Source: Parcubacteria group bacterium Gr01-1014_8 (lineage in GTDB: Bacteria; Patescibacteriota; Minisyncoccia; Phycocordibacterales; UBA2100). Taken from it: a stretch of 64,000 bases of DNA. The notes under the pieces are model-generated. The model searched no databases. It saw nothing but the letters and a program-made list of their open reading frames with translations, and was not told where the DNA came from. Below are positions 2,196 to 46,068 of the stretch, in pieces. Each line of letters begins with the position of its first letter. Position 1 is the stretch's first letter. The stretch is from contig VMGC01000002.1 of assembly GCA_007376385.1 (NCBI GenBank), positions 128,001-192,000 on the forward strand, given 5' to 3'. Position numbers and translations under genes: made by a program.

Positions 2196-2926
2196 ACGTA
2201 CAGCTTTTCGTATGGATAACTGTTGATATTGTTCTTTGGGGGTTCATCACCAAATATTTCACCGAGTCAGTAGGCGCAGAGTTCAGTTTTGTGACGACGC
2301 TTCTTGGCGCAGTCATTTTGTGGGACATATTAAGCAGAGCGCATCAAGGTACGACGATGCCTTTTTTGGAGGATGTGTGGTCGAGGAATTTTCTGAACAT
2401 TTTTGCGACTCCTCTCAAACTTCCGGAGTACTTGCTCGGCTTCATCATGACATCGCTTTTTACGACGGGCCTCGTTGTCGTTGCCATCTCGCTTTTTGCC
2501 GCGGTTGTTTTTGATTATTCGCTATTTTCGCTTGGAATATATCTCGCTCCGTTTCTCGGTATCTTGTTTTTGTTTGGCGCTGCGCTTGGTATTTTGGGCA
2601 TCGGGCTCGTGCTTCGATTCGGTCCTCCGGCCGAGTGGTTCACCTGGCCCCTTGCAGCCGTCCTTAGTCCTTTTGCGGGGGTGTTCTACCCTATCTCTAC
2701 GTTGCCTGACTGGATGCAGACAGTGGCATATCTGTTGCCGCCTGCCTATGTCTTTGAAGGCATGCGGGGAGTCATCTTGACAGGCGTTATCTCCGGCGGG
2801 TCGCTTGTGAAGGGTTTTGTACTAGCGTGTGTATACGTACTCCTCATGTATGCACTCTTCACGTATATGTATAGAATAGCTATACGAAATGGGCTTATTG
2901 CTCGGTACAGCGCCGAAGGGCCATAG
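2165..2926 (+). CDS. ABC-2 family transporter permease
   Basis: Six predicted TM segments downstream of the ABC ATPase. The start is uncertain because the track ORF start at 2129 lies inside a repeat; ATG 2165 was taken. Confidence 0.65.
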   Translation: MYLFRGSPTRYVQLFVWITVDIVLWGFITKYFTESVGAEFSFVTTLLGAVILWDILSRAHQGTTMPFLEDVWSRNFLNIFATPLKLPEYLLGFIMTSLFTTGLVVVAISLFAAVVFDYSLFSLGIYLAPFLGILFLFGAALGILGIGLVLRFGPPAEWFTWPLAAVLSPFAGVFYPISTLPDWMQTVAYLLPPAYVFEGMRGVILTGVISGGSLVKGFVLACVYVLLMYALFTYMYRIAIRNGLIARYSAEGP

Positions 2927-2969
2927 TTTCGACTGTAATCTTTATATGTATTCATCCGTCACACTAAAC

Positions 2970-4181
2970 ATGAGCACATTGCGGCATTTTTTATCCGTAC
3001 CCCGTGTGGCATTTTTGCTGCTTTTCTTTCTGTATGTGTTTTTGCCTCACGCCGCCTCTGCCGCGGTGATATCAAAACCGTTTGAAATATCAGGATGGAT
3101 ACCGTACTGGCGCACCGCAACAGGTACTGCGGACACGCTTGTGCACCTTGAGACATTCACCGAAGTTAATCCATTCGTCTACACGGTCACGAATACCGGC
3201 CGTTTGAATGATGCGGGGAGTCTCCTCACCGACGCTTCTTGGATACAATTGAAGCAAGAGGCGAAGCTAAAAGGGGTGCGGTTTATTCCAACAGTGATGT
3301 GGTCCAACCCTGACGCGATGCATGCAGTACTCAGCGATACGGCCACGCGGCAGCTCTTGGTGAGAATGATAGTGGATGAGGCTGTCGTCAACGAATACGA
3401 CGGCATTGATATCGATTTTGAGGGCAAGTATGCGAAGACCCGCCCGTATTTCTCAAAATTTCTTCAGGAGTTGTATAAGGGAATGGGGAACAAGTGGGTG
3501 CAATGTACCATCGAATCGCGCACGCCTATCGCAGACCGATATTTCGGGACAGAACCGCCTTCTGACGCGGGCGAGTATGCGAACGATTTTGCGGTCATCA
3601 ACAAAAACTGTGACCGCGTACGCTTCATGACGTATGACCAGCAGAATGTCGACCAAAAGCTCGCGTCGGAGACGACAGAGCCATACGGCCCAGTCGCCGA
3701 TACAGACTGGGTCGAGAAAGCAATTCGCGAAGCAATGAAAACAATTCCCAAGCGAAAGATAGTGCTTGGCATTGCCACCTATGGCTACGAGTGGGATGTA
3801 CGGACGTATGCTAACAACGAGCATGTGTATGACCTCTTGTGGACGTTCAATCCGAAATACGGTTTGGAGCTCGCGTCGAAATACAACATTACGCCCGGAA
3901 GAAACGCAGGCGGAGAACTAGGTTTTACATATTTTCCAGAGGGGGCAGCGATTTCTCTCCCTCGTCCCAGCATTCCGTGGCCGTACAACCTTATTGCTTC
4001 CGCCGCTTCCGCTCTTACAACGGCTAACAATTCAAACATGTCGTACAGAATGGTCACATGGAGCGATGCGGAGGCGATAGGAGATAAAGTGGACTTGGCA
4101 AAACGGCTCGGCATTCGGGGGGTAGCCATCTTCAAAATAGACGGAGGCGAGGACCCCGGCATGTGGGAGGCGTTAAAATAA
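2970..4181 (+). CDS. Glycoside hydrolase family 18 (chitinase-like), secreted
   Basis: DGIDIDFEG catalytic motif (DxxDxDxE), YGYEW, and a signal-peptide-like N-terminus after ATG 2970. Confidence 0.75.
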   Translation: MSTLRHFLSVPRVAFLLLFFLYVFLPHAASAAVISKPFEISGWIPYWRTATGTADTLVHLETFTEVNPFVYTVTNTGRLNDAGSLLTDASWIQLKQEAKLKGVRFIPTVMWSNPDAMHAVLSDTATRQLLVRMIVDEAVVNEYDGIDIDFEGKYAKTRPYFSKFLQELYKGMGNKWVQCTIESRTPIADRYFGTEPPSDAGEYANDFAVINKNCDRVRFMTYDQQNVDQKLASETTEPYGPVADTDWVEKAIREAMKTIPKRKIVLGIATYGYEWDVRTYANNEHVYDLLWTFNPKYGLELASKYNITPGRNAGGELGFTYFPEGAAISLPRPSIPWPYNLIASAASALTTANNSNMSYRMVTWSDAEAIGDKVDLAKRLGIRGVAIFKIDGGEDPGMWEALK

Positions 4182-15523: not shown

Positions 15524-16300
15524 ATGAGGTATTCCGAGTCGGTGCTTCCGGTGATGAGGGCGATCAGAGACATGCTTCTCCCAGAGTGGGGCGTCGCGAA
15601 AGCCGTCCATCAAAAAACAGCGTCCTCATGGAGCGTCGTTACGGCGCTCGATATCGAAATAGAAAAATTTGTGAGCGCCGAATTGGCGCATCTCCACCCT
15701 GATATTGAATTTGTCGGAGAAGAGCAAGGGGGGAATAGAAGTGCGAAGAAATTCTGGTTGATGGACCCGATAGACGGAACGGCTCACTTTATCCGCGGCC
15801 TGCCGTTCTGCACGTCGATGCTTGCATTGGTCGACAGAGGGCATGTCGTTTTTTCTGCCATATACGATTTTATACACGACGAAATGTATTTTGCTGATAA
15901 GGGGAAAGGAGCGTTCTGCAACGAAAAGAAGCTTTCAGTGAGTTCGCGAACGTTAAAAGATTCTTTCGTCTCGTTCGAGACGGATATTGCAATCGAGAAG
16001 AATGCTAATTTGCGACAAAAAATGCTCTCGCAAACGAACGTAATGACGACATTTTGTGCAGGCTGGGAATTTGCAATGGTCGCATCAGGAAAAATTGATG
16101 CGCGAATATGTCTCGACCCGTTTGGCCAAGATTATGATTTCGCTCCTGGTACGCTATTGGTAATGGAAGCAGGAGGCGTCGTCACGAACCTTGATTCGCA
16201 CGAATTTGACTATACGAATTTGGATCTCATCGCAGCAAATCCGCTTGTGTATAAAGACCTTACGGAGGGAGAATCAGCATTATTCCCTCTCGGGCGCTAG
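15524..16300 (+). CDS. Inositol monophosphatase family phosphatase
   Basis: WLMDPIDGT motif and EE..G metal-binding residues. The start is 1 nt after the otsA stop. Confidence 0.7.
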   Translation: MRYSESVLPVMRAIRDMLLPEWGVAKAVHQKTASSWSVVTALDIEIEKFVSAELAHLHPDIEFVGEEQGGNRSAKKFWLMDPIDGTAHFIRGLPFCTSMLALVDRGHVVFSAIYDFIHDEMYFADKGKGAFCNEKKLSVSSRTLKDSFVSFETDIAIEKNANLRQKMLSQTNVMTTFCAGWEFAMVASGKIDARICLDPFGQDYDFAPGTLLVMEAGGVVTNLDSHEFDYTNLDLIAANPLVYKDLTEGESALFPLGR

Positions 16301-16394
16301 CTATAGAGGGATGTGGACAATTGATTAACTTCTCTGCCTGCAGGGGACTATACTTGCAGGAAGGGTCGATTATACATATTCACTCTATTTTTAT

Positions 16395-16613
16395 ATGAAG
16401 TGGTTACACATGGTCTCCTATATCCTCGTATTTGCTGGAAGCTTGAACTGGCTGCTTTTGGCGCTTACTGGATGGGAAATAGGCTCTCTGTTCGGAGGTA
16501 TGACAGCTCCAATATCGCAGGTGGTCTATGTGCTAGTTGGACTTGCAGCCATCTATCTCATCGCGACCCATAGGAAATACTGCAAAGAGTGCGCAGCAGG
16601 TGCGCCAATGTGA
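16395..16613 (+). CDS. DUF378 family small membrane protein
   Basis: GSLNWLLLALTGWEIGSLFGG resembles the DUF378 NWGLIG core. Two TM helices, 72 aa. Confidence 0.55.
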   Translation: MKWLHMVSYILVFAGSLNWLLLALTGWEIGSLFGGMTAPISQVVYVLVGLAAIYLIATHRKYCKECAAGAPM

Positions 16614-16808
16614 AGCTAGCCACCGCCGTTCGCGACGGTGTACTGGGGCTGGCTTGCTGATAACGTGTCTCTCTGCCGACTTGAGATCAATCTTTGCCAC
16701 CTCACCGTAGTTTGGCGGCAATTCCAGATTATGAAGAGCGTGCGCGGTGGGCCCAAACCAAAACGCTCGAGGAAACTCGGGCGTTTTGCATGCTAAAGTT
16801 TCAAGAAT

Positions 16809-17243
16809 ATGGAAGACAGGCCCTTTGTCGGTATTGGCGTAACGATACTTAAAGATGGAAAAATTCTCCTCGGCAAAAGAGTATCAACGTATGGGACCGG
16901 AGAATATCAAACGCCTGGCGGACATCTTGAGCCTAAAGAAGCTTTTGAGGCATGTGCGCGGCGAGAAACCTTGGAGGAGTGCGGACTCGAAATAGGCTCA
17001 ATCCGTTTTCAATTTGTAGCAAATGCCGTAGGGTATGGTCTCGTGCATTACGTTCATATTGGTTTGATAACGGAATGGAAGGCAGGTGAACCTAAAAATC
17101 TTGAACCTACAAAATGCGAAGGATGGGATTGGTACTCTCTTGACGCATTGCCGGAGCCTCTTTTTGTATACACGAAATGGTCTATAGAGGCACATCAAAC
17201 AGGACTCAATTATTTCGATAGTGAGGCCCGACCAGCGAAATAA
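16809..17243 (+). CDS. NUDIX hydrolase
   Basis: Nudix box GGHLEPKEAFEACARRETLEECGL. Confidence 0.8.
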   Translation: MEDRPFVGIGVTILKDGKILLGKRVSTYGTGEYQTPGGHLEPKEAFEACARRETLEECGLEIGSIRFQFVANAVGYGLVHYVHIGLITEWKAGEPKNLEPTKCEGWDWYSLDALPEPLFVYTKWSIEAHQTGLNYFDSEARPAK

Positions 17244-35159: not shown

Positions 35160-36191
35160 CTACCGCGCTCGCGGGATGCCTCCAGTGTCAACAGACTGCC
35201 CGTCAGTGGATAGAGCAGGCTCTGATACCGATGGTTCGCTCGCCGGCGTTCCGCCGGTTCCTTCTGCGCTGGTCGTCGTTGCTTCGACTATCGAAGGAGT
35301 ACCCACGGTAGAATTTGTGGATCGGTTTGCTTTTGGTGCAGCCTTTGAGGGCGCACTTGGCACTAGAGGCTCATTTATTTCAGGTAATTGCTCTGTCTCC
35401 TCCATCACACGGGATGGATCCATGGGCTCTTCCTCTGGGAGAGCAGTCTGGATGCCGAGCATCAGACCAGCACCGACGAGACCGGCAAGAATGTGCATAT
35501 ATGTGCCTCCGTTGCTCCGAACTGACGCGAGCGCGTGGGGCAAGAGGTCATGCAAGACAACAGACATAAATCCTCCGGCGGCTATACCAGAAAATAGTGC
35601 GACGATCCAAGTCACTGATGACAGTGTGCTTGCAAGGAAAAAGCCGATGAGAATGGTGGAGGAAACGAGAAAACTCCGGGTCAGGGCTCCTTTATTGGAA
35701 TATCCAGCCCCGCGTAGCACAAAGTACTCTGAGACCTCCTGCACCGTCTCATGGAGAACGACGCCGAGCGTTGCTGCAAGGCCGATGTACCAATTCGTCT
35801 CAAAAGCACCCACAAGCAGAATACCGTCCCCAATGTTATGCAGAGCGTCGCTAAAGAGCACGCTACGACCCTCTATGGGAGTGTGAGTGTGACTATTGTC
35901 AACGTCGTGGTGGTGGTGCTTTGTTGGAAAAATATAGTGAATTCCTTCCATAAGCGTTGCACCGATAAGTACCGATATGACAGCGACCACCCAGCCGCCT
36001 GCGCGTACGGCCTCCGATGCAAGGTCAAATGCGACAAGAACAAACACGCCAGCAGAAAAGGTTGCCAAATAGGTCAGATATCGTTGCATCCACTGTCCCA
36101 GTTTTCCTGCGGAAAAGATGACCCCAATAAGAGATATCAGCATGACAAGAAGCGATGCGAGAAAAGCAGCGCTCGCAGCTGAAAAGTCCAT
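35160..36191 (-). CDS. ZIP family metal (zinc) transporter with a long S/T/A/P-rich C-terminal tail
   Basis: His-rich loop HHHHDVDNSHTH and a HNIGDG..E motif in the TM core. About 90 aa of low-complexity C-terminal extension. Confidence 0.7.
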   Translation of the reverse strand: MDFSAASAAFLASLLVMLISLIGVIFSAGKLGQWMQRYLTYLATFSAGVFVLVAFDLASEAVRAGGWVVAVISVLIGATLMEGIHYIFPTKHHHHDVDNSHTHTPIEGRSVLFSDALHNIGDGILLVGAFETNWYIGLAATLGVVLHETVQEVSEYFVLRGAGYSNKGALTRSFLVSSTILIGFFLASTLSSVTWIVALFSGIAAGGFMSVVLHDLLPHALASVRSNGGTYMHILAGLVGAGLMLGIQTALPEEEPMDPSRVMEETEQLPEINEPLVPSAPSKAAPKANRSTNSTVGTPSIVEATTTSAEGTGGTPASEPSVSEPALSTDGQSVDTGGIPRAR

Positions 36192-36202
36192 AATGGGTGT
36201 GA

Positions 36203-36346
36203 GTGTACCCCATGAGATAAGGACCCGCTATAGGCTATTCACAGGAAGCTACTTTTTGAAAGAAGAATTACTCTAGCGAACGCCACCCGGTCTATCTCAC
36301 GGGGTGTACCCCAGAGAGTAAAGACTCGCTACCGGCTATTCACAGA
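36203..36346. repeat. Palindromic-arm element copy 2, with an internal 44-nt direct duplication
   Basis: Arms GTGTACCCCATGAGATAA (36203-36220) and TATCTCACGGGGTGTAC (36293-36309). The unit GTGTACCCCATGAGATAAGGACCCGCTATAGGCTATTCACAGGAAG is repeated at 36303-36346. The left arm lies 13 nt from the ZIP ATG. Confidence 0.6.
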
Positions 36347-36717
36347 AGATATGCTGACAACAAAGTATGCACATCATGCGGACCGTTTGCCTCTATCTAC
36401 TATTGACACAGGGCCGGGTATGTATCCGAGTATTTTCCTTAAAACTTGACGGAACAAGTGAAATGTCCGATAGGAATGTCCATGAGGATGTCTGATGGGA
36501 CAGGTTGATGATCAGAGCTGCCTTAGTAAGGGACAGACCGACAGAATGGACTGGATATAGGACGTCATGTATGCCGGAATTGACAGTCAGTAAAATTGTG
36601 TTGTTTCGGACATTTTATCGTCAACTTTCGTTGACAGGGATTGTACCGCGCGTACTGTTACGGACAGCGCTCTTTTAATTTACGCTATTACTAAAGATTA
36701 ATTATAAATACGAGCAT

Positions 36718-37977
36718 ATGACGTTGTTACGTTTGGCACGTGTGGGAGGTGTTGCGGCTTTTGCTGTTCTCTTGTTCACACTCGTTTCGTTTGTGGGAAA
36801 CCAGCGTCTTGCTTACGCAGATGAGGTGCCCGTTTCGGGCTCTGACATTGTGTGCGACACGTATCGTCAACTGCAGGAACAGGGATTGCCGATCCCTCCA
36901 GGACTCGATGTGAGCGGTTGTGAAGGAGGTGGGGGAGGCGGCGGTGGTGGCGAACCGCCACTACCAACGGTTACAGAGTGCATAGACGGTATTGATAACG
37001 ACGGAGATGGACGTACCGATTTTCTTCCGATATACGGCGACCCCGATTGTGATAACTTCTCTGATGATAGCGAGGCGGCGAGCGGAGGAGGCGGCGGTGG
37101 CGGTTCTACTCCAGCATGTGCCGATGGCATTGATAACGACGGCGATGGGCTCGTAGATAGTGTTGACCCGGGCTGCTCAGACACTTCCGATACTGACGAG
37201 GCCGATCCTACGGGGGGCGGCGTAGGAGGTGGTGGAGGTGGCGGAGGCGGAGGCCCCGCAGCGGCGTGCGAGGACAGCATAGACAATGACCTCGATGGTC
37301 TTAAAGACATGCAAGACCCAGGGTGTGAAAATGCTTCTGACAACGACGAAACCAACGGTTCTGGTGGAGGAGGAGGCGGCGGGGGAGGTGGCGAGGCAGC
37401 GACGACAACGGCACCAACTCCAGAAATTCTCGGCGCATCAACGCCAGCACAGGAACTTTCGTGCGACTCCTACCTGACGGCATTCATTCGCTTCGGCGGA
37501 AAGAATGATGCAGACCAGGTTATGCGCCTCCAGAAAGTACTCAAAGATTACGAGAAGGCGGATGTGAATGAAAATGGTACCTACGATGCTGCAACTCTCA
37601 AGGCAGTACATGCATTCCAAACAAAGTATGCCGATGAAATTCTTACACCATGGGGTATCAAGAGCTCGACAGGCTATGTGTATCTCACGACGCGAAAGAA
37701 AGTGAATGAAATTCGGTGCGAGAATAAGAAGACATTTCCGCTTTCGGAAGAAGAACAGAAGAAAGTCGAGGAAACACGGGTTTCTGCGGCAGTCAGGGAC
37801 ATCGGCACAGACGCATCTCCCGCAAAACCAGCGGAGCCAGCAAAACCTGCAGTAGTAAAAGCTAAAGATGTAACGGACAGGACCGCCGATTCATCGTCAA
37901 AAGACGAGACAGTGCAGGTGAGCGGATTGAAGAGGGTGTGGGATTTCCTCGGCAGAATGTTCAACAGAGCGCGCTAA
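36718..37977 (+). CDS. Secreted protein with poly-Gly spacers, three Ca-binding-like Cys-DxDNDGDG repeats and a C-terminal peptidoglycan-binding-like domain
   Basis: Signal peptide. Repeats CIDGIDNDGDGRTD..DPDC, CADGIDNDGDGLVD..DPGC and CEDSIDNDLDGLKD..DPGC. C-terminal LQKVL..NGTYDAATLKAVHAFQ resembles PG_binding_1. Confidence 0.5.
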   Translation: MTLLRLARVGGVAAFAVLLFTLVSFVGNQRLAYADEVPVSGSDIVCDTYRQLQEQGLPIPPGLDVSGCEGGGGGGGGGEPPLPTVTECIDGIDNDGDGRTDFLPIYGDPDCDNFSDDSEAASGGGGGGGSTPACADGIDNDGDGLVDSVDPGCSDTSDTDEADPTGGGVGGGGGGGGGGPAAACEDSIDNDLDGLKDMQDPGCENASDNDETNGSGGGGGGGGGGEAATTTAPTPEILGASTPAQELSCDSYLTAFIRFGGKNDADQVMRLQKVLKDYEKADVNENGTYDAATLKAVHAFQTKYADEILTPWGIKSSTGYVYLTTRKKVNEIRCENKKTFPLSEEEQKKVEETRVSAAVRDIGTDASPAKPAEPAKPAVVKAKDVTDRTADSSSKDETVQVSGLKRVWDFLGRMFNRAR

Positions 37978-38290
37978 ACGAAATCAAATCGTACAGAAAC
38001 GACGCCATATTCTGGCGTCTTTTTTGTCCTATACCAACTATGACACTCTGTCCTTAGTGGTGCGCATAGATTCTGCAGCGTTGACAATAATGGACGGACT
38101 TTGTACGATGCGCGCCGTTAGAGACAAACATCTCCCGTTCCTTGTCATTTTTTGTAGGAGGTCAGGGCGGGCCCAAAGCCGACAGCTTTCACGCTGGTTT
38201 CCCTAGGTTTTGGGCCCACCCAGGATTCCTACATGATCACGTAAAATATTATACAGGGAAGATAAAAAAGGCCGCGTTGAGCGGTTTTTT

Positions 38291-38404
38291 TATTGGCGAC
38301 GTAGAGCGAGTGAAATGAACGTGTACTCATGTTCATTTCCGAGCCGAGGAGCCAACATAGGGTCGAATGCCCCGCGGCTTGCCCGCGGAATGAATACCCT
38401 TTAT
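38291..38404 (-). repeat. Stop-codon-associated structured repeat (copy D, inverted, not gene-adjacent)
   Basis: Reverse complement reads AAAGGGTATTCATTCCGCGGGCAAGCCGCGGGGCATTCGACCCTATGTTGGCTCCTCGGCTCGGAAATGAAC..GTTCATTTCACTCGCTCTACGTCGCCAATAA. The tail matches copy C (CACTCGCTCTACGTCGC). Confidence 0.65.
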
Positions 38405-38829
38405 TGCAACTCATTATAAAAAAATATCAATGGTGTTTGACAACAAGCATGAATACGTATCGAAATACTTTTCCACATGGCTAATTCATTGACACTCCAC
38501 GAGAACGCGCGATAATTCGCCTACGTTTCGTCGCGTGCGCAAAATGCGATAAAGCGAGGGGAACCAGCGGACAATATGTCCGTTGAGAACATTTTTTTTA
38601 CTCACAGCTGTCTTTTTGAAATGAAGAGACGAGGCATCGCTGACCGTGATGCGTCGTTTTTTATTATGCAAATGGACGACTGAAGTCCATGGAGCGGCTT
38701 ATTTCCATGAAATGAGCCGCTCCGTGAACTGCAAGGTTCATGAGAAAGGTCGAGTTCTGCATTGCGCCGTCCGTACGGAGGCACAATGTCAGGTTTATCA
38801 AAACTTATCAACATGAAAAATTCAAAGAT

Positions 38830-39726
38830 ATGACTAAGACTATGAAAATCGGTGCAGTTCTTGCAACAAGCGCGATGGTTTTGTCGCAGTTCGCAGCAAT
38901 TCCTGCATACGCATGTGAGGACTGGTGCTGGGGCGAAGGAAGCTCTGACGACAACAGCGTCTACATAAAGGTTTCGAACTCAGGCACAATCTACAACGAA
39001 ACTAAAGCTAAGGCAGACACTGGCGACAACGATGCCGGCGGAAGCTACGGCGGCGACGGCGGCTCTGCTGGAGACGGTGGCGACGGCGGCGAAGCTGATG
39101 TGGAAGGCGGTGTTAATTGGTGCGGAGAGTGCAGCGACGGATCGGACAGCGAAGCAAACGGAGGCGACGGCGGCAACGGCGGCGACTCGAACGGCGGCGA
39201 TGCAGGTCCGGGTGGGCTCGTAGACACTGGGGATGCTGACGCAAACGCAGGAACAGTCAACACACTCAACACGACCGATATCGCAGTTGAGGGATGTGGC
39301 TGTGAGGATGACCAGGATGAGTGCGGATGCATTCCTCCATGGCTCCGACGCGACGTTGACAACAGCGTCCGCGTGAAGGTCCACAACGACGGCACGATCA
39401 ACAACGAAACTAAAGCTAAGGCAGACACTGGCGACAACGATGCCGGCGGAAGCTACGGCGGCGATGGTGGCGGCGATTGTCACTGTGACGGCGGTGGCGA
39501 CGGTGGCGACGGCGGTGACGCTGAAGTTGGCGACGACGAAGAGGGCTGTGGTTGTGAATGGGACATCGGTGGCGGCGGCACAGCAAACGGCGGCGACGGC
39601 GGCGACGGCGGAGACGCTGACGGCGGCGACGGCGACGTAGGAGGCACGATCCGAACGGGCGACGCTCGATCGGACGCTGGCACTGTGAACGTGATGAACA
39701 CGACTCTTGTTCGTGTAACTCGCTAG
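38830..39726 (+). CDS. Secreted Gly/Asp-rich repeat protein
   Basis: Signal peptide MTKTMKIGAVLATSAMVLSQFAAIPAYA. Two near-identical ~20-aa repeats (NETKAKADTGDNDAGGSYGGDGG) encoded by exact 60-bp DNA repeats. TGDADANAGTVN motifs shared with the next gene. Confidence 0.45.
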   Translation: MTKTMKIGAVLATSAMVLSQFAAIPAYACEDWCWGEGSSDDNSVYIKVSNSGTIYNETKAKADTGDNDAGGSYGGDGGSAGDGGDGGEADVEGGVNWCGECSDGSDSEANGGDGGNGGDSNGGDAGPGGLVDTGDADANAGTVNTLNTTDIAVEGCGCEDDQDECGCIPPWLRRDVDNSVRVKVHNDGTINNETKAKADTGDNDAGGSYGGDGGGDCHCDGGGDGGDGGDAEVGDDEEGCGCEWDIGGGGTANGGDGGDGGDADGGDGDVGGTIRTGDARSDAGTVNVMNTTLVRVTR

Positions 39727-39787
39727 TTCACGCATCTCTGGAGAGAGAACCTCTGTTCTCTCTCTGGGGTGGGTGGGAGGGAAGTCA

Positions 39788-42634
39788 ATGCTTCCCCCCT
39801 CTCATGAGATCTTGCAATTTAGCCGAGGTCTCATTAGGAGGGAACTAAAGCGTGGCTCTATGTATACATATAAAGATGTTGGAATAGTGTGGGTGACCGC
39901 GTTCGTACTTGCGGGCGTGATTATTTTAACTGGCGGAATGCCTGGAGTGTTGGCATTTGCACAGGAGGCGGAAGCACCGCCTGCATACGCAGAGGCGGCG
40001 TACTACGCCGAAGCGAGCTACTATGCGGAGGCCGCGTATGAGCCAGCGCCCGAGCCTACTCCGGAGGTGCAGGCGCAAACTCAAGAAACAATTAATCCTA
40101 ATGAGAACACAGGCTCGGAAGGAACTGATGGGCAGCCGGATGCTGCACCTCCTCAAGATGGGGAGAACGGCGACGATAGTACGCCGACAGATCCAGCGAC
40201 CGACGGAGAGCCAGGCCAGGACAACAATGCACCAGTGGATCCACCGGCAGCTGATGGAACGCCGACAACAATTAATACGGGTGATGCGTCTGCGGATTCA
40301 ACATCAACGGATGCAGGGAACCTGACAAACATAGACACACCTGCTCCGGACCCGAACACCTATCCGTATGGAAAACCACCAGCATGGTTCATCGCTGCAT
40401 GTGAAAAATATCCGCAACCCAAGTGCGAGAAATACATCGTTAAACCTCCTCCGACAACGGTTGTAGTGAGCGACGATATCGTGCTTGAGAATGGGGGGGA
40501 AGCAGTCGCAGAGACTGGAGAAAATACAGCAGTGGACCCTGAAGGCGTCTCTATCACGACAGGAAATTCTGATGCGTTCGGCTACCTCATCTCGCTCTTT
40601 AACGTTGTTGTGACGAATTCAACCGGCTCGATACTCTTCCTCAAGAACCCGCTTTCGAGCGCCCTCGACTTCACGCAGCGTATCATGGACATTTTCAACA
40701 ATCTTGCCGGAGGAGACGGCGACTGTACGCTCCTTGGCTGCTCAATTTCTGACGCGGTCTTCAATCTCATCACTGATGATACGGCGACAGTCTCGAATGA
40801 GCTTATTGTTCGAGCGGGGACCGGAGCGAACGCCGCGACGTCTACCGACGGCGTAGCAAGCATCGACACGGGAAATGCGAACGCGTTCGGAGGTATCGTG
40901 AACTTCGGCAACCTTCAGATAGTCGATTCGCGCTACATGATAATCCTCATGACCAACCAGGGCGACCTGTCAGGGAACATCGTTCTTCCTGAAGCTGAAT
41001 TTTTCAGGCAGCTCTCCACGGGAGCGAAATTCGGAAGCGCGAGCTCGTTCGATACGACGAACGGCGCTGATGTGACGAACGATGGAACGGCGAATGCGGA
41101 TACGGGAGACAACGCCGCAGTTGCATCCTCAACTGAGGAGATAGCGCAGATACACACCGGAGAGGCGGATGCTGATGCCTCCACGATAAACTTTGTGAAC
41201 CAGATAGGCGCTCCTATCTGCTTTATCGTGAACGTAGGCGGCAGGTGGCGCGGAGATGTAAAGCGTCTCCCAGAAGGCTTCTCTCGCGAGCAGACTGAAT
41301 TCGGCGAGATAATCTGTGGAGCGGGAACAAACACAGATAGACCTGGCGCGCGTGACAACTTCCACGCGACAACGACAAACTATGCAAAAGTATTGAACAA
41401 GGCGATCGTCGAAGCAACGACAGGGGCGAATGCAGCAGCAGGCGCGGCGGCGCGGATCAACACAGGCGACGCTGATGCGTTCGTGCAGATCCTCAACGTC
41501 TTGAACCAGAGCATCATCGGACAAGACTGGATATTCGCTCTTTTCACCGTAACAGGCGATTGGAACGGCAACCTCATATTCGGCGCAGACCCGGCAGTGC
41601 CTGGCAGCGGCGGCGGGGATGTCCTCACGCAGATCGCAGCATCAATGCTCGCAGGCGCAGGCGGCGGCCTGCCTGGTGGATACACATCTGACCCGAAATT
41701 GTCTGTCACAAAAACAGCGAATGTAACGAGCGCAAAGGCTCCTGCGAAAGTCGATTACACGGTCGTGGTGAAGAATGACAAGGGGGGAGGCGCAGCATAC
41801 CGCGCAGTGCTCTCGGATATTCTCGTTGAACCTTCGAAGGGCTCACGGATCTCTACACGCTGGTGGAATCTTGGAACCGTGAAAGAGGGCGAGGAAATAA
41901 CGCTCACCTACACCATCGAGTACAACGAAGAGATACCGTACGGTGTGTATGAAAACACTGCGACTGTCTCGGGCTACAAAAACAGCTCGATCTATGTCGC
42001 GCCAAATCCATTCGACCAAATTTCTGCGACGGCAAGCGTCGAGATAAGCGGAGGAGAGATATTGGGAGTGCAGACAACGAACTCGTGCAAACCTCTTCTC
42101 AAGGGCTTTGTCAAGGTTGGGCAGAAGAATTCTCCTGAGGATGTGCGTAACCTGCAGACATTCCTCTTGGTTTCTGAAGGCGACCAGATAGGGGCTTCGG
42201 GTGTGTACGACCAGAAAACAATAAATGCCGTAAAAAAGTTCCAGCAGAAATATGCCGAGTACATCTTGACGCCATGGGGAGTAACAGAGCCGACAGGAAA
42301 TGTGTACTACACGACACAACACACCATCAACAATATGTACTGCCGAGGTTCGGGCGCGTTCTCGCTCTCCGCGGATCAAGTGAGTGAAATAAACGGGTTC
42401 AAGGCAAAGTACACGAATCCGCTTCCGAATGTTCCTAAGCCGGACCCTATCATCGAGGGAGTGGGACAAATACAGAAAAAGATGAAGCCTCCGGTGACAC
42501 TCGAGCTCCCGAAAATAGTCCCCGCGTCGGCGCTCCTAAAGTCGTTCGCTCCGACTTCTAATGCAGGAAGATCGAATGGGCTTGGCAAGTGGATGAAATC
42601 AATGATGCCGTTCGTCGAGGCGGGAGAAGAATAG
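39788..42634 (+). CDS. Large (about 950 aa) secreted/cell-surface repeat protein with a DUF11-like domain and a C-terminal peptidoglycan-binding-like domain
   Basis: GGGAGG lies 7 nt before ATG 39788 (alternative ATG 39860). N-terminal TM/signal. Repeated I-x-TG-[DN]-A-x-A ... N..N motifs. TVVVKNDKGGGAAYRAVLSD..EGEEITLTYTIEY (DUF11-like). C-terminal LQTFL..GVYDQKTINAVKKFQQKYAEYILTPWG matches the tail of the 36718 protein. Confidence 0.5.
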   Translation: MLPPSHEILQFSRGLIRRELKRGSMYTYKDVGIVWVTAFVLAGVIILTGGMPGVLAFAQEAEAPPAYAEAAYYAEASYYAEAAYEPAPEPTPEVQAQTQETINPNENTGSEGTDGQPDAAPPQDGENGDDSTPTDPATDGEPGQDNNAPVDPPAADGTPTTINTGDASADSTSTDAGNLTNIDTPAPDPNTYPYGKPPAWFIAACEKYPQPKCEKYIVKPPPTTVVVSDDIVLENGGEAVAETGENTAVDPEGVSITTGNSDAFGYLISLFNVVVTNSTGSILFLKNPLSSALDFTQRIMDIFNNLAGGDGDCTLLGCSISDAVFNLITDDTATVSNELIVRAGTGANAATSTDGVASIDTGNANAFGGIVNFGNLQIVDSRYMIILMTNQGDLSGNIVLPEAEFFRQLSTGAKFGSASSFDTTNGADVTNDGTANADTGDNAAVASSTEEIAQIHTGEADADASTINFVNQIGAPICFIVNVGGRWRGDVKRLPEGFSREQTEFGEIICGAGTNTDRPGARDNFHATTTNYAKVLNKAIVEATTGANAAAGAAARINTGDADAFVQILNVLNQSIIGQDWIFALFTVTGDWNGNLIFGADPAVPGSGGGDVLTQIAASMLAGAGGGLPGGYTSDPKLSVTKTANVTSAKAPAKVDYTVVVKNDKGGGAAYRAVLSDILVEPSKGSRISTRWWNLGTVKEGEEITLTYTIEYNEEIPYGVYENTATVSGYKNSSIYVAPNPFDQISATASVEISGGEILGVQTTNSCKPLLKGFVKVGQKNSPEDVRNLQTFLLVSEGDQIGASGVYDQKTINAVKKFQQKYAEYILTPWGVTEPTGNVYYTTQHTINNMYCRGSGAFSLSADQVSEINGFKAKYTNPLPNVPKPDPIIEGVGQIQKKMKPPVTLELPKIVPASALLKSFAPTSNAGRSNGLGKWMKSMMPFVEAGEE

Positions 42635-42670
42635 AGCACCGAGGCGCTTTCAGCGCCCAGTTGTAGTAGA

Positions 42671-43318
42671 ATGCCACCCTATATGAAGTATGTTCTCACA
42701 TCCCTCGTTCTACTCCTCGTTCCAGGCGTCTCGTTTGGGGCGGGGCTTGCGGCGAGTACCGATGGCATCATCTACAGGCAGGCGAGCGTTACTGTCTCCA
42801 ATAGCCTGCCTGCCGCGTCGAGTGCGGCGCAGGCAGGCGGCTCCATCAATAGCAACACAAGTTCGTCGGCATCGAGCGGGGGAAATTCAGTAGGAAGCGG
42901 CCTGCCCGGCCAGGGTGGCTCTGTAACCACCGGAAATGCAAGCGCATCTGCTTCGACTGAAGTTACCAGCGATGGCAGCGGTGGCAGTGTAAAAGTGAAA
43001 GTGGAGACAGACAGTGGAGATGGGAAAAAAGTCGAGGAGTATCAGAAAGACCTAAAGGCTGGGGAATCAATTGATGTAAGCGTCGAAGCGACGTCGAAAA
43101 GCGGAGGAGGGACGTCCGAAAGCAGTGTCAAAGTAACAGCGAACGGCTCCGAGGTCGCAACGTCAAGCGCAACGTCCACTGATGCCGCAACTCCCATGGC
43201 GGAGGCTGTCGCAATGGAAGCTTCGGCCTCGTCCAGTCTAGGTAAGATAACATTCACCAACATATTTGCAGGTATTAAGAGCGCATTCCACGGATTCTTG
43301 AACTTCTTTGGTTTCTAA
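42671..43318 (+). CDS. Secreted Ser/Gly-rich low-complexity protein
   Basis: Signal peptide (MKYVLTSLVLLLVPGVSFGA), then S/G/T-rich sequence. Confidence 0.4.
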   Translation: MPPYMKYVLTSLVLLLVPGVSFGAGLAASTDGIIYRQASVTVSNSLPAASSAAQAGGSINSNTSSSASSGGNSVGSGLPGQGGSVTTGNASASASTEVTSDGSGGSVKVKVETDSGDGKKVEEYQKDLKAGESIDVSVEATSKSGGGTSESSVKVTANGSEVATSSATSTDAATPMAEAVAMEASASSSLGKITFTNIFAGIKSAFHGFLNFFGF

Positions 43319-43337
43319 GCAGGTTACAATAGGGTAC

Positions 43338-44330
43338 ATGGCGCGACCGAGCGTTGAGCGAGGAAGTACTGAGCGTAGCAACGCGAATGTGCGCCCAAAG
43401 CGCAAGAGCCGAAATAAGATATCGCATGTGATCTTGCCGTTGCCGGAAAACGGCCACCATCCGCATCTTCTTCGCGGCCCCACCGTGATGACGGTGCTGG
43501 CCGTTGTGAGCGTTCTCCAAATAGGGTTCTTCGCTTACCAATTCACATTCCTTTCATCGAGCGTGAACATAGCGAGCGTGCTACCGGGGGCCATCGCACT
43601 TCTCTCAAATACTGCGCGTGCAGAAGCAGATAGTTTGCCTCTCGAGATCAGTCCCGTTTTAGCCGGAGCTGCGCAAAAAAAAGCCGAGGATATGGCGCAA
43701 AAAGGCTATTTTGCACACAAAGAGCCCAATGGCGACATGCCATGGCATTGGTTCACAGAGGCCGGATACAACTATGTATACGCAGGCGAGAACTTGGCGG
43801 TGAATTTTTCTGACACGAAACAGCTTGTTGATGCATGGCTAGCGTCTCCGGCGCATCGCGACAATATTTTGAAACCGCAATACACCGAGATAGGCATCGG
43901 CATGGCGACTGGTACATACAAGGGAAAAGAAGCAATATTCGTAGTCCAATTTTTTGGAGCAGAACAAGATTCACGTTATGCAGTTTCAAATACAGATACA
44001 GTTGAAGACGTGGCAAAAATAGATGCCGCAACTTCATCCGTTCTCGGGGAACAGGTCAGCAACGCGAGCTCTGCTGGTTCGCTTTTGGACAATGTGAGAA
44101 TTTCTCCGCGGACGTATGCCATCCGCACGCTGATGTCGCTTATCGCGCTGTTCGCAGCGTTGCTCGCGTTCAGTCTGATGCCCGCGTTCCGTGCGCATCC
44201 TCGGGCGGTTATGAATGGTTTCCTGGTCATTACGGTCCTTGTTTTCTTTTACGCATTCCAAGACGGATTTTTTGGAAGGACAGTGCTCTCGGATGAGGCG
44301 CAAGCAGCAACGGTAGCGTCAGTGTTATGA
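43338..44330 (+). CDS. CAP/SCP (PR-1-like) domain membrane protein
   Basis: YFAHKEPNGDMPWHWFTEAGYNYVYAGENLAVNF..WLASPAHRDNIL (CAP signature). Flanking TM helices. ATG at 43338, after the stop of the Ser-rich gene. Confidence 0.65.
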   Translation: MARPSVERGSTERSNANVRPKRKSRNKISHVILPLPENGHHPHLLRGPTVMTVLAVVSVLQIGFFAYQFTFLSSSVNIASVLPGAIALLSNTARAEADSLPLEISPVLAGAAQKKAEDMAQKGYFAHKEPNGDMPWHWFTEAGYNYVYAGENLAVNFSDTKQLVDAWLASPAHRDNILKPQYTEIGIGMATGTYKGKEAIFVVQFFGAEQDSRYAVSNTDTVEDVAKIDAATSSVLGEQVSNASSAGSLLDNVRISPRTYAIRTLMSLIALFAALLAFSLMPAFRAHPRAVMNGFLVITVLVFFYAFQDGFFGRTVLSDEAQAATVASVL

Positions 44331-45894: not shown

Positions 45895-46068
45895 CACCAC
45901 TCCTTCGGGGTTGGGTGAAAGTCCCAATCGGCGGTATAGCCCGCGAGTTCTTAGGGACACGATTTGGTGAGATTCCAAAGCCGACCGTACAGTCGGGATG
46001 AAAGAAGGAAGCGAGGCACCCTTGTTGGATGCTTGCGTGGTAACCCCGATGGATCGGGGTTTTTTATT
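45895..46068 (+). ncRNA. FMN riboswitch (RFN element) with an SD-sequestering/terminator hairpin
   Basis: TCCTTCGGGGTTGGGTGAAAGTCCCAATCGGCGGTATAGCCCGCGAG...GGTGAGATTCCAAAGCCGACCGTACAGTCGGGATGAAAGAAGG matches the RFN core. Followed by CCCCGATGGATCGGGGTTTTTT, directly upstream of ribE. Confidence 0.85.

Follow-up and report, generated by a model that had tools for sequence, protein, structure and literature searches.

A conserved five-gene locus for exported repeat proteins in Patescibacteria and a candidate RNA-RNA pair ahead of its second gene

What do five consecutive genes for exported and membrane proteins build at the surface of a Patescibacteria cell, and what controls them? Envelope building and cell attachment in the Candidate Phyla Radiation (CPR, Patescibacteria) are largely unknown, and few of the abundant 'hypothetical' secreted proteins have been grouped into systems. 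The genes analyzed here (g1 to g5, all on the + strand) lie between a divergent ZIP transporter gene and lysS in a 64,000-nt stretch of Parcubacteria group bacterium Gr01-1014_8 (contig VMGC01000002.1, positions 128,001-192,000), which we call the window and whose positions serve as coordinates throughout. An earlier note on this DNA had proposed that they encode a dedicated, regulated cell-surface structure (adhesin, sheath or S-layer-like), and nearly all that it had observed in the sequence was borne out here. We favor, tentatively and at a little short of an even chance, a reading in which the five genes form a module, specific to Patescibacteria and conserved by vertical descent, for a surface assembly that is anchored to the cell wall, has one new beta-hairpin repeat unit as its building block and is under RNA-RNA control. 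That the products are an exported, wall-associated set is very probable. An anchor-plus-subunit polymer in particular is possible, and we hold it more loosely.

Shared repeat unit and predicted wall-binding domains

Three of the proteins carry the same repeat unit in graded copy number: four units in g3, two in g2 and, by alignment, one in g4. The g2 protein (38830-39726) is secreted and rich in Gly, Asp and Asn, and its two units of ~135 aa hold CxC/CxxxC pairs. Each unit runs from a conserved N.T.A.A.TG.N.A strand through a Gly/Asp-rich loop to a GG.V.TGDA.A…N..N hairpin, and its CxC pairs are conserved. Profile comparison by hhalign matched the g2 and g3 units with a probability of 97.7% (E 2.4e-12), which bears out the earlier report of TGDA-type repeats common to these two genes and is extended here by the single unit of g4. 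The exact 60-bp DNA repeats described before in g2 proved to be a 64-nt exact repeat (38993-39056 = 39401-39464) inside a 148-nt duplication that is 81% identical. The g4 protein (42683-43318) is secreted and Ser/Gly-rich, and its TG unit is accompanied by a beta-rich segment and an aromatic hydrophobic C-terminal tail. Gene starts were refined with homologues or orthologues and gene calls. A longer g2 open reading frame (ORF), starting at 38740, would cross a conserved non-coding leader, and the g2 start was set at 38830.

The 953-aa ORF of g3 (39860-42634) combines a signal/anchor segment, an acidic Pro-rich disordered region, a four-repeat beta domain of ~380 aa (aa 225-610, nt 40445-41602), a CLIPPER/DUF11 domain (nt 41699-41974) and a Cys-bracketed peptidoglycan (PG)-binding domain (nt 42086-42343). 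In its structure model, residues 228-610 reach a pLDDT (per-residue confidence) of ~90 and form four repeats of long hairpins, each made of one strand of ~20 residues and two shorter strands; a beta sandwich at 640-760 and a helical domain at 785-880 follow. Neither Pfam nor NCBIfam has a model for the four-repeat domain, the structure libraries searched contained no solved relative, and a sequence search of g3 and of its CLIPPER region against the PDB gave no significant match.

Residues 643-734 of g3 match PF01345 (DUF11, now CLIPPER) at E 1.4e-7 (32.2 bits against a cutoff of 24.6), so the DUF11-like module seen earlier was correctly recognized, and g3 homologues also match DUF11/DUF7507. 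The region has the CnaA-like beta-sandwich fold of CLIPPER domains. These domains carry a Lys/Asp/Asn isopeptide triad with a catalytic Asp, represented by K715/D748/N806 in PDB entry 9IFR (PMC12617251). K647, D682 and N728 of g3 are invariant in 19 homologues and, with a spacing similar to that in 9IFR, fit this triad (PMC12617251), and the g3 domain would probably carry an isopeptide cross-link.

The C-terminal domain of g3 adopts a three-helix PG-binding fold and scores 23.0 bits with PG_binding_1 (PF01471), exactly at the Pfam cutoff of 23. The secreted g1 protein (36718-37977) has the same domain at aa ~245-345 (39% identity over 115 aa, E 1e-20), where the Pfam score of 20.3 bits is below the cutoff and a sequence search against the PDB found no significant match. 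Both the shared domain and its resemblance to PG_binding_1 had been pointed out in the earlier note. Unlike the PG_binding_1 proteins used as comparators, the N-terminal domain of SleB (6TCI) and the endolysin AP3gp15 (5NM7), the g1/g3 domain scores only at or below the Pfam cutoff, is bracketed by a conserved Cys pair and has an ILTPWG…TG.VY.TT extension; it also sits on structural repeat proteins, whereas the comparators are attached to hydrolases. Besides this domain, g1 has poly-Gly linkers, a basic amphipathic tail at its C-terminus and three acidic double-disulfide repeats. The repeats, first noted as Cys/DNDGDG repeats, match NCBIfam NF033662 (acid_disulf_rpt) in three stretches at 61.2 bits (cutoff 41). 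Judged from their DxDxDG-like pattern only, they probably bind Ca2+; our literature search found no description of the acidic double-disulfide repeat.

The suggestion that all five genes encode signal-peptide proteins held for g1 to g4 and failed for g5. The first four, all acidic secreted proteins, have a hydrophobic segment and the cleavage sites AYA/DE, AYA/CE, AFA/QE and SFG/AG, respectively (signal peptides were judged by hydrophobicity and AxA sites). By its predicted topology g5 (43338-44330) is a polytopic membrane protein, with the CAP domain on the outside, and not a classical signal-peptide protein: it has a basic N-terminal tail of ~45 aa, an internal transmembrane segment and two C-terminal ones. 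Its extracytoplasmic CAP/SCP (YkwD-like) domain, also recognized earlier, matches PF00188 at E 1e-19 (72 bits, cutoff 21.1), and TIGR02909 YkwD at 95.7 bits, below the equivalog cutoff of 171.

None of the five proteins belongs to a well-known unrelated family, as the earlier note had anticipated, apart from the modular CLIPPER, PG-binding and CAP domains. Pfam and NCBIfam searches (E <= 0.1) detected no SLH, CWB2 or other recognized S-layer anchoring or lattice domain in g1-g5, and Pfam (E <= 0.1) detected no curlin repeat, Peptidase_M73 (TasA) or chaplin domain in them. No C-terminus of g1-g5 shows LPxTG plus a hydrophobic tail, and Pfam gave no sortase domain among the five proteins.

The g3 family is large and uncharacterized, and its repeat domain is unmatched. 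The window's g3 matches hypothetical protein G01um10148_567 of Parcubacteria group bacterium Gr01-1014_8 with 100% identity. A phmmer pass over 1.84 billion representatives (50%-identity clusters) returned 1,114 proteins with the g3 N-domain at E <= 1e-3 and 688 at E <= 1e-10, nearly all of 800-1,200 aa. The N-domain was followed by CLIPPER/DUF11 in each of nine sampled members and also by PG_binding_1 in six of them. None of ten family representatives that we looked up had a functional name, and a literature search did not find the family described. The locus gives a testable conserved module of anchor, subunits and accessories around a family of more than 1,100 such clusters.

On the reading that we favor, g3 would be fixed non-covalently to the producer's peptidoglycan by its C-terminal PG_binding_1-fold domain, whose binding is predicted, and would serve as wall anchor and nucleator. 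The CLIPPER domain would act as a stalk that holds g3 off the wall and lets it display its four repeat units. With two units and no anchor, g2 would be the abundant secreted major subunit that associates or polymerizes on g3; we infer this role because g2 is unanchored, lies behind a strong promoter and stands upstream of a probable processing or stability hairpin. The single-unit g4 may be a minor or terminal subunit, g1 a second wall-bound component that probably binds Ca2+, and g5 a membrane CAP-domain factor for assembly or processing.

Tethered proteins encoded together with secreted paralogues are known from Streptomyces chaplins, Bacillus subtilis TapA/TasA and Escherichia coli CsgB/CsgA; the chaplins comprise long wall-anchored ChpA-C and short secreted ChpD-H. 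By analogy, the locus would combine graded-copy paralogues, with a tethered four-unit g3 and unanchored g2 and g4 of two units and one. This is likeness and not membership, as the five proteins have no relation in sequence or Pfam domains to chaplin, TasA/Peptidase_M73 or curlin. The proposed anchor of g3 is a PG_binding_1-fold domain instead of a sortase substrate or an outer-membrane nucleator. Unlike the TasA and curli loci, this one has no SipW signal peptidase and no Csg-type secretion genes, and polymerization is only proposed here.

The CLIPPER and PG-binding domains also suit a different function, in which the proteins are host-attachment adhesins of an epibiont or parasite: the g3 N-domain would bind a host ligand, and the g1/g3 PG-binding domains would bind host peptidoglycan. 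CLIPPER is a typical stalk domain of fibrillar adhesins (PMC12617251). In three cultured Paceibacteria, secreted proteins with PG-binding domains and a similar predicted structure rank among those expressed most highly, and a part in host attachment was proposed for them (PMC10936435). Their homology to g1/g3 could not be established, however, which makes them a lead only, and that study dealt with archaeal hosts, cells without peptidoglycan. Unlike the CLIPPER stalks of fibrillar adhesins (PMC12617251; PDB 9IFR), g3 has one such domain and not a long tandem array, and it joins this domain to a four-repeat domain at the N-terminus, itself undescribed, and to a PG-binding domain at the C-terminus. 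Host attachment also leaves the unanchored paralogues g2 and g4, with their repeat unit, unexplained. We consider it unlikely and retain a wall-anchored assembly as our preferred explanation.

Conservation of gene order across Patescibacteria

Relatives were found by exact-protein look-ups and by a scan of GTDB representative genomes with a 19-sequence alignment as the query. The same five-gene order occurs in at least six other Patescibacteria genomes (loci L003/L011, L005, L007, L012, L015 and L016); the carriers of the full set are Kaiserbacteria and other Patescibacteria metagenome-assembled genomes (MAGs). The sets of L010 and L140 are partial due to contig ends. All ten loci from the genome scan belonged to Patescibacteria. 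In more distant loci (L008, L009, L141, L142, L144 and L145) a g2-like gene directly precedes a g3-like gene or, in some cases, is parted from it by a small gene. The flanks of L005 and L007 differ from those of the window, with DsbB and FAD oxidase genes upstream and an SNase gene downstream. Because the order is kept across Patescibacteria lineages despite different flanks, it reflects more than inherited local synteny, and the word 'dedicated' in the earlier proposal was well chosen.

Several loci showed further features. In L141 (1-5418) the g2 and g3 genes and the Block A hairpin described below lie directly downstream of genes for two SpaA_2 (isopeptide pilin-like) proteins and an LTD-domain protein, a set of different surface proteins in place of g1. 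Dsb genes occur near the module in three genomes (DsbB in L005 at 2773-3306 and in L007 at 2483-3019, DsbA in L003 at 16152-16865). Their proximity fits the many conserved Cys pairs of g1, g2 and g3, found in the double-disulfide repeats, the CxC motifs and the Cys-bracketed PG-binding domain.

In MAG GCA_021731295 a contig break separates g2 from g3 (L140, contig end at 6952; L013, contig start), and the contigs of L010, L018 and L019 also end inside the locus. The Gly/Asp-codon repeats probably fragment assemblies, and the module is therefore likely under-counted in MAG surveys. The Third Party Annotation MAGs with L010, L012, L015, L018 and L019 are labeled 'uncultured Candidatus Saccharibacteria', though they carry close orthologues of Parcubacteria/Kaiserbacteria type; the label looks like a generic CPR assignment and not a real placement. 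ENA assembly ERZ27284378 carries 21.5 kb identical to the window, with zero mismatches.

Block A hairpin and its complement in the g2 leader

The 850-bp spacer between g1 and g2 shows DNA conservation among genomes with proteins of only ~45% identity. Its upstream part holds a hairpin that we call Block A (38152-38234; this and all other RNA features are on the + strand), with a 27-bp outer helix, a 4-bp inner helix (31 bp in total) and an invariant 3' bulge. Across ten loci, 91% of the aligned cells are paired and 19 of the 31 pairs show compensatory changes, against 28-47% pairing in slid controls, and the G·U pairs favor the + strand. A covariance model recovered divergent copies upstream of g2-like genes in five further loci, which brings the total to 15. 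Block A travels with g2 and not with g1: L141, L145 and L008 have it with an upstream gene that is unrelated or on the opposite strand. Most loci have a U-tract at the hairpin or no more than ~60 nt from it. In the window a short GC hairpin followed by U7 (38270-38296) is a possible 3' end of the hairpin RNA. Searches against Rfam 15 gave no match in 36100-38900 at E <= 1, and at the gathering threshold the sole match in the window was an FMN riboswitch.

The invariant inner arm and bulge of Block A form a seed, CGCUGGUUUCCC (38192-38203), that complements GGGAAACCAGCG of the g2 5' leader exactly. The target site AGGGGAACCAGCG (38557-38569) makes 13 bp with the seed, one of them G·U. Across loci the target lies 22-99 nt downstream of a conserved TTGAC-N17-19-GATAAT promoter and 245-450 nt upstream of the g2 start codon, and so not at the ribosome-binding site. 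Block A is always on the same strand as the target and 220-350 nt upstream of it. Ungapped complementarity of 12-15 bp was found in each of 12 loci, a length reached by at most 1.3% of shuffles in each case; this ungapped-run test replaced RNAduplex over whole leaders, which gave long spurious duplexes. A metagenome scan with the 14-mer CGCTGGTTTCCCTA added a single real match, L139, as the other 119 of 120 matches had arisen by chance.

Seed and target change together. In L018 a C-G pair has become U-A and one C:G pair has been added, so that AUGCUGGUUUCCCC pairs with GGGGAAACCGGCA. In L017 GUUUCCC:GGGAAAC is replaced by GUCUUCUCG:CGAGAAGAU, and AAGCUGGUCUUCUCGA pairs with both CGAGAAGAUCUGCUU and UCGAGAAGAUUA. 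The 21 duplexes of 16 loci comprise 248 Watson-Crick pairs, 14 G·U pairs and 1 other mismatch, although duplex ends were chosen for maximal pairing, which flatters the mismatch count. The target changes seen on the + strand are A-to-G and C-to-U, the only ones that keep the pairing. Changes of this G·U type argue for RNA-RNA pairing over protein-binding DNA sites or recombination repeats, and from these patterns we regard pairing at the RNA level as highly likely. Block A and its target are thus a well-supported candidate for a new RNA-RNA regulatory pair, whose natural variation already behaves like a compensatory-mutation experiment.

Each leader holds one to three target copies. Multiple copies were seen in L005 (6727-6754), L007 (6694-6721), L012 (5459-5617), L016 (4680-4760), L145 (2769-2795) and L017 (4763-4777 and 4929-4940). 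The leaders of L008, L009 and L016 also contain an internal seed-like sequence (GUUUCCCC, GGUUUCCCU or CUGGUUUUUUU), which could compete with Block A for the target.

The same sequences could be viewed as inverted DNA repeats around the g2 promoter, forming either an inverton phase switch or operators for a DNA-looping repressor. Formally the architecture is that of an inverton, since every locus has a 12-15-bp inverted repeat around a promoter segment of 220-350 bp, and paired changes would likewise keep such repeats identical. However, 14 of the 15 internal non-Watson-Crick positions are G·U on the + strand, which in DNA would be G·T or A·C mismatches. The left repeat lies inside the 27-bp covarying helix with its own G·U pairs, and in L008 and L009 the repeat is down to 7-8 nt, in a hairpin loop and a bulge. 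Moreover, the segment has the same orientation in three pairs of independent assemblies, and the ~7 kb upstream and 17 kb downstream contain no recombinase gene. A DNA-level role is accordingly very improbable.

If pairing occurs between RNAs, the two partners could still be parts of one molecule. A transcript starting upstream of Block A would include both, and their pairing would be an intramolecular helix in a g2 leader of ~700 nt, acting as a cis-regulatory RNA. The invariable position of Block A on the same strand, 220-350 nt before the target, is compatible with this. So is the scarcity of promoters upstream of Block A: the window has a promoter-like site, TTGACA-17-TACGAT (38081-38109), and a comparable one was detectable in only five of the 15 loci. 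In L005, L016 and L017 Block A begins ~10-55 nt after the stop codon of a co-directional g1. Two features separate the partners, however. Between Block A and the target there is a conserved -35/-10 pair close to consensus, and in most loci also a hairpin with a U-tract; in L005, L008, L009 and L017 Block A itself is terminator-like, with the U-tract directly 3' of the hairpin. We therefore distinctly favor pairing in trans, and a purely intramolecular role seems unlikely.

Like small RNAs (sRNAs) that are encoded next to their targets, derived from 3' untranslated regions or ended by terminator hairpins, Block A has a single-stranded seed on a stable hairpin that ends at a U-tract and co-evolves with a leader target. 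Unlike the sRNAs of model bacteria, it belongs to no Rfam family, its seed lies in an internal bulge of a 31-bp hairpin, and its g2 target lies 245-450 nt upstream of the start codon in 1-3 copies. A limited literature search found no base-pairing sRNA described in Patescibacteria/CPR. With this pair, sRNA-type regulation would reach a radiation that has tiny genomes and lacks well-studied RNA chaperones.

The g2 promoter, TTGACA-16-GATAAT (38489-38516), has 11 of 12 consensus matches, and TTGAC-N17-19-GATAAT is conserved in ten loci. This moves the start of the leader: the earlier note had drawn it as 38405-38829, and Block A, upstream of that interval, had gone unnoticed. Overlapping the 3' end of the target is a small hairpin, GCGGACA-AUA-UGUCCGU (38566-38584), which other loci keep with different, covarying sequences (GCGAG..CUCGC, GCGCAC..GUGCGC, GCGCU..AGCGC). 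Next comes a terminator-like hairpin with U6 (38634-38662), a possible attenuator, with equivalents of hairpin and U-run in L003, L005, L007 and L018. The palindrome reported before in the leader (38688-38732) proved to lie in a covarying hairpin, Block C (38680-38734), which is 99% paired with compensatory changes at 7 of 22 pairs (eight loci). Block D (38744-38788) consists of the invariant GAAAGGUCGA followed by the hairpin CAUUGCGCCGUCCGUACGGAGGCACAAUG (38760-38788), and because it is invariant there is no covariation evidence for it. Ahead of the g2 start codon there is no Shine-Dalgarno sequence, only an A-rich stretch.

Inside the Block D hairpin there is a GGAGG and an AUG (38776-38788), 35-66 nt upstream of the g2 start, which also occur in L003, L005, L007, L010, L012, L015, L016 and L139. 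We rejected a leader peptide starting there: the ORF has 3-15 codons or is fused in or out of frame with g2, and it is not conserved. In the window its stop codon overlaps the g2 ATG (ATGA).

The spacer between g2 and g3 (39727-39859) is strongly structured when compared with shuffled sequence (z -5.4). It contains a conserved hairpin, CCUCUCAUGAG…CUCAUUAGGAGGG (39796-39842), which has compensatory changes at five of 17 pairs in six loci and no U-tract after it, and which may be a processing or stability element for a high g2:g3 ratio.

Together, these elements suggest how the module might be controlled. Transcription of g2-g5 would start at the strong sigma-70-type promoter and pass through a structured leader of ~300 nt with its terminator-like hairpin. 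The separately encoded Block A RNA would pair through its bulge, CGCUGGUUUCCC, with GGGAAACCAGCG near the 5' end of the leader, and this pairing would modulate g2 mRNA stability or read-through of the leader terminator. The structured g2-g3 spacer would probably set a high g2:g3 ratio. A conserved promoter, the ~300-nt structured leader, the terminator-like hairpin, the covarying complementary RNA hairpin and a TAAMGGACA-like DNA box described below all support the earlier view of the locus as regulated.

Strong promoters followed by leaders of several hundred nt with stable conserved hairpins are found before the abundant surface-protein genes slpA and ompA. The g2 promoter and its long leader of stable conserved hairpins resemble these; unlike them, the g2 leader adds a terminator-like hairpin and a site for an antisense partner. 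A strong promoter with a long structured 5' leader is typical of S-layer genes, and an S-layer is visible on CPR cells in electron cryo-microscopy. These facts invite the proposal that g3 itself is the S-layer protein, forming an acidic, wall-anchored two-dimensional lattice of ~95-kDa chains, with g2, g4 and g1 as accessory or lattice-modifying proteins. In its favor, the single g3 chain is acidic and of suitable size and has both a signal peptide and a predicted domain for non-covalent wall binding, and the locus has such a promoter and leader. Envelope formation in CPR has itself been called unclear (PMC5220378). Yet the promoter and leader precede g2 and not g3, the structured g2-g3 spacer suggests more g2 than g3, and Pfam and NCBIfam searches of g1-g5 found no SLH, CWB2 or other known anchoring or lattice domain. 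Repeat units common to three paralogues of graded size also look more like an anchor-plus-subunit system. An S-layer of g3 is in our judgment an unlikely alternative to g3 as the anchor and g2 as the major subunit. Slightly less unlikely, though still doubtful, is a broader idea, that the g2/g3/g4 TG-hairpin proteins are building blocks of the surface layer or sheath of Paceibacteria-type CPR cells, with their synthesis gated by a dedicated antisense sRNA. If that is true, no earlier base-pairing sRNA regulator would have been defined in the Candidate Phyla Radiation, and the fold of the building blocks would be one without a solved relative.

Several points weigh against a wall-anchored assembly under RNA control. 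The PG_binding_1 scores lie at the Pfam cutoff for g3 and below it for g1. The AlphaFold monomer model of g2 is poor (pLDDT 42.8 with 25 homologues) and was not used for a fold search, so that a fold common to g2 and g3 rests on profile similarity alone; the poor model may reflect a shallow alignment or a fold that needs partners. On the RNA side, the choice of duplex ends favors the pairing count, complementarity in L008 and L009 is only 7-8 bp, and promoter-like sites for a Block A transcript in just five of 15 loci mean that the pairing could be intramolecular within a long transcript. An attenuation model derived from minimum-free-energy folds was rejected, as the terminator forms whether or not the target is blocked; these folds yielded neither an attenuation logic nor the sign of the effect.

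Boxes upstream of g1 and neighboring genes

The region upstream of g1 (36338-36717, + strand) contains a promoter-like site and a cluster of GGACR/YGTCC boxes that resemble TAAMGGACA. The promoter assignment is putative: a -35 element TTGACA (36631-36636) is followed by TACTGT (36653-36658) and then TACGGACAG, and the arrangement TTGACA-N16/17-TACTNT-TACGGAC is common to the window, L003 and L012. The four TTGAC-type boxes counted previously in 36340-36717 are three TTGACA and one TTGACG. The GGACAG/TGTCC repeats mentioned with them belong to the broader motif GGACR/YGTCC, which occurs seven times in the 380 nt upstream of g1 against 1.35 expected, the densest spot in the 64 kb. Upstream of g1 in seven orthologous loci there are 33 occurrences against 7.1 expected (Poisson P ~1e-12, a post hoc value because the motif was picked after data inspection).

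The flanks of 78 GGACR/YGTCC sites are biased at positions -4 to -1 (T in 46, A in 46, A in 54, A or C in 64), and this T-A-A-[AC] preference gives independent support for the box. The extended box TAAMGGACA alone is not enriched in the window, its support coming only from the comparison across loci. Palindromes such as ATGTCCTTTATAAAGGACAT occur in the box regions of several loci, and boxes also lie within the spacers of promoter-like sites before Block A and, in L140, within the g2 promoter. This pattern fits binding sites of a putative dedicated DNA-binding regulator, and a TAAMGGACA-binding factor may control g1. The locus offers a candidate DNA box for such a regulator. A terminator-like hairpin with a T-run, predicted from its sequence, follows g1 (38001-38028, + strand). 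We looked for a remnant of fur/yibEF upstream of g1 and found none.

Two 42-nt direct repeats, GTGTACCCCAnGAGATAAGGACCCGCTAnnGGCTATTCACAG, lie at 36203-36244 and 36304-36345, 101 nt apart and 79% identical. They stand directly upstream of the divergent ZIP metal-transporter gene (start 36191, minus strand) and may be regulatory sites or a 5' untranslated element of that gene. The neighbors of the module are housekeeping genes: uppP/BacA, DAGK, OTCase, lysS and a riboflavin (rib) operon with its FMN riboswitch. At the downstream end the g5 stop codon overlaps the lysS start (ATGA, 44327-44330), and in the window lineage, as in L003, lysyl-tRNA synthetase may be co-transcribed with the surface-protein operon; L005 and L007 have an SNase-domain gene after g5. 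Complete riboflavin pathways are uncommon among CPR genomes. Here the FMN riboswitch (RF00050, 104 bits) at 45897-46013 precedes a ribE-ribH-ribBA-ribD operon.

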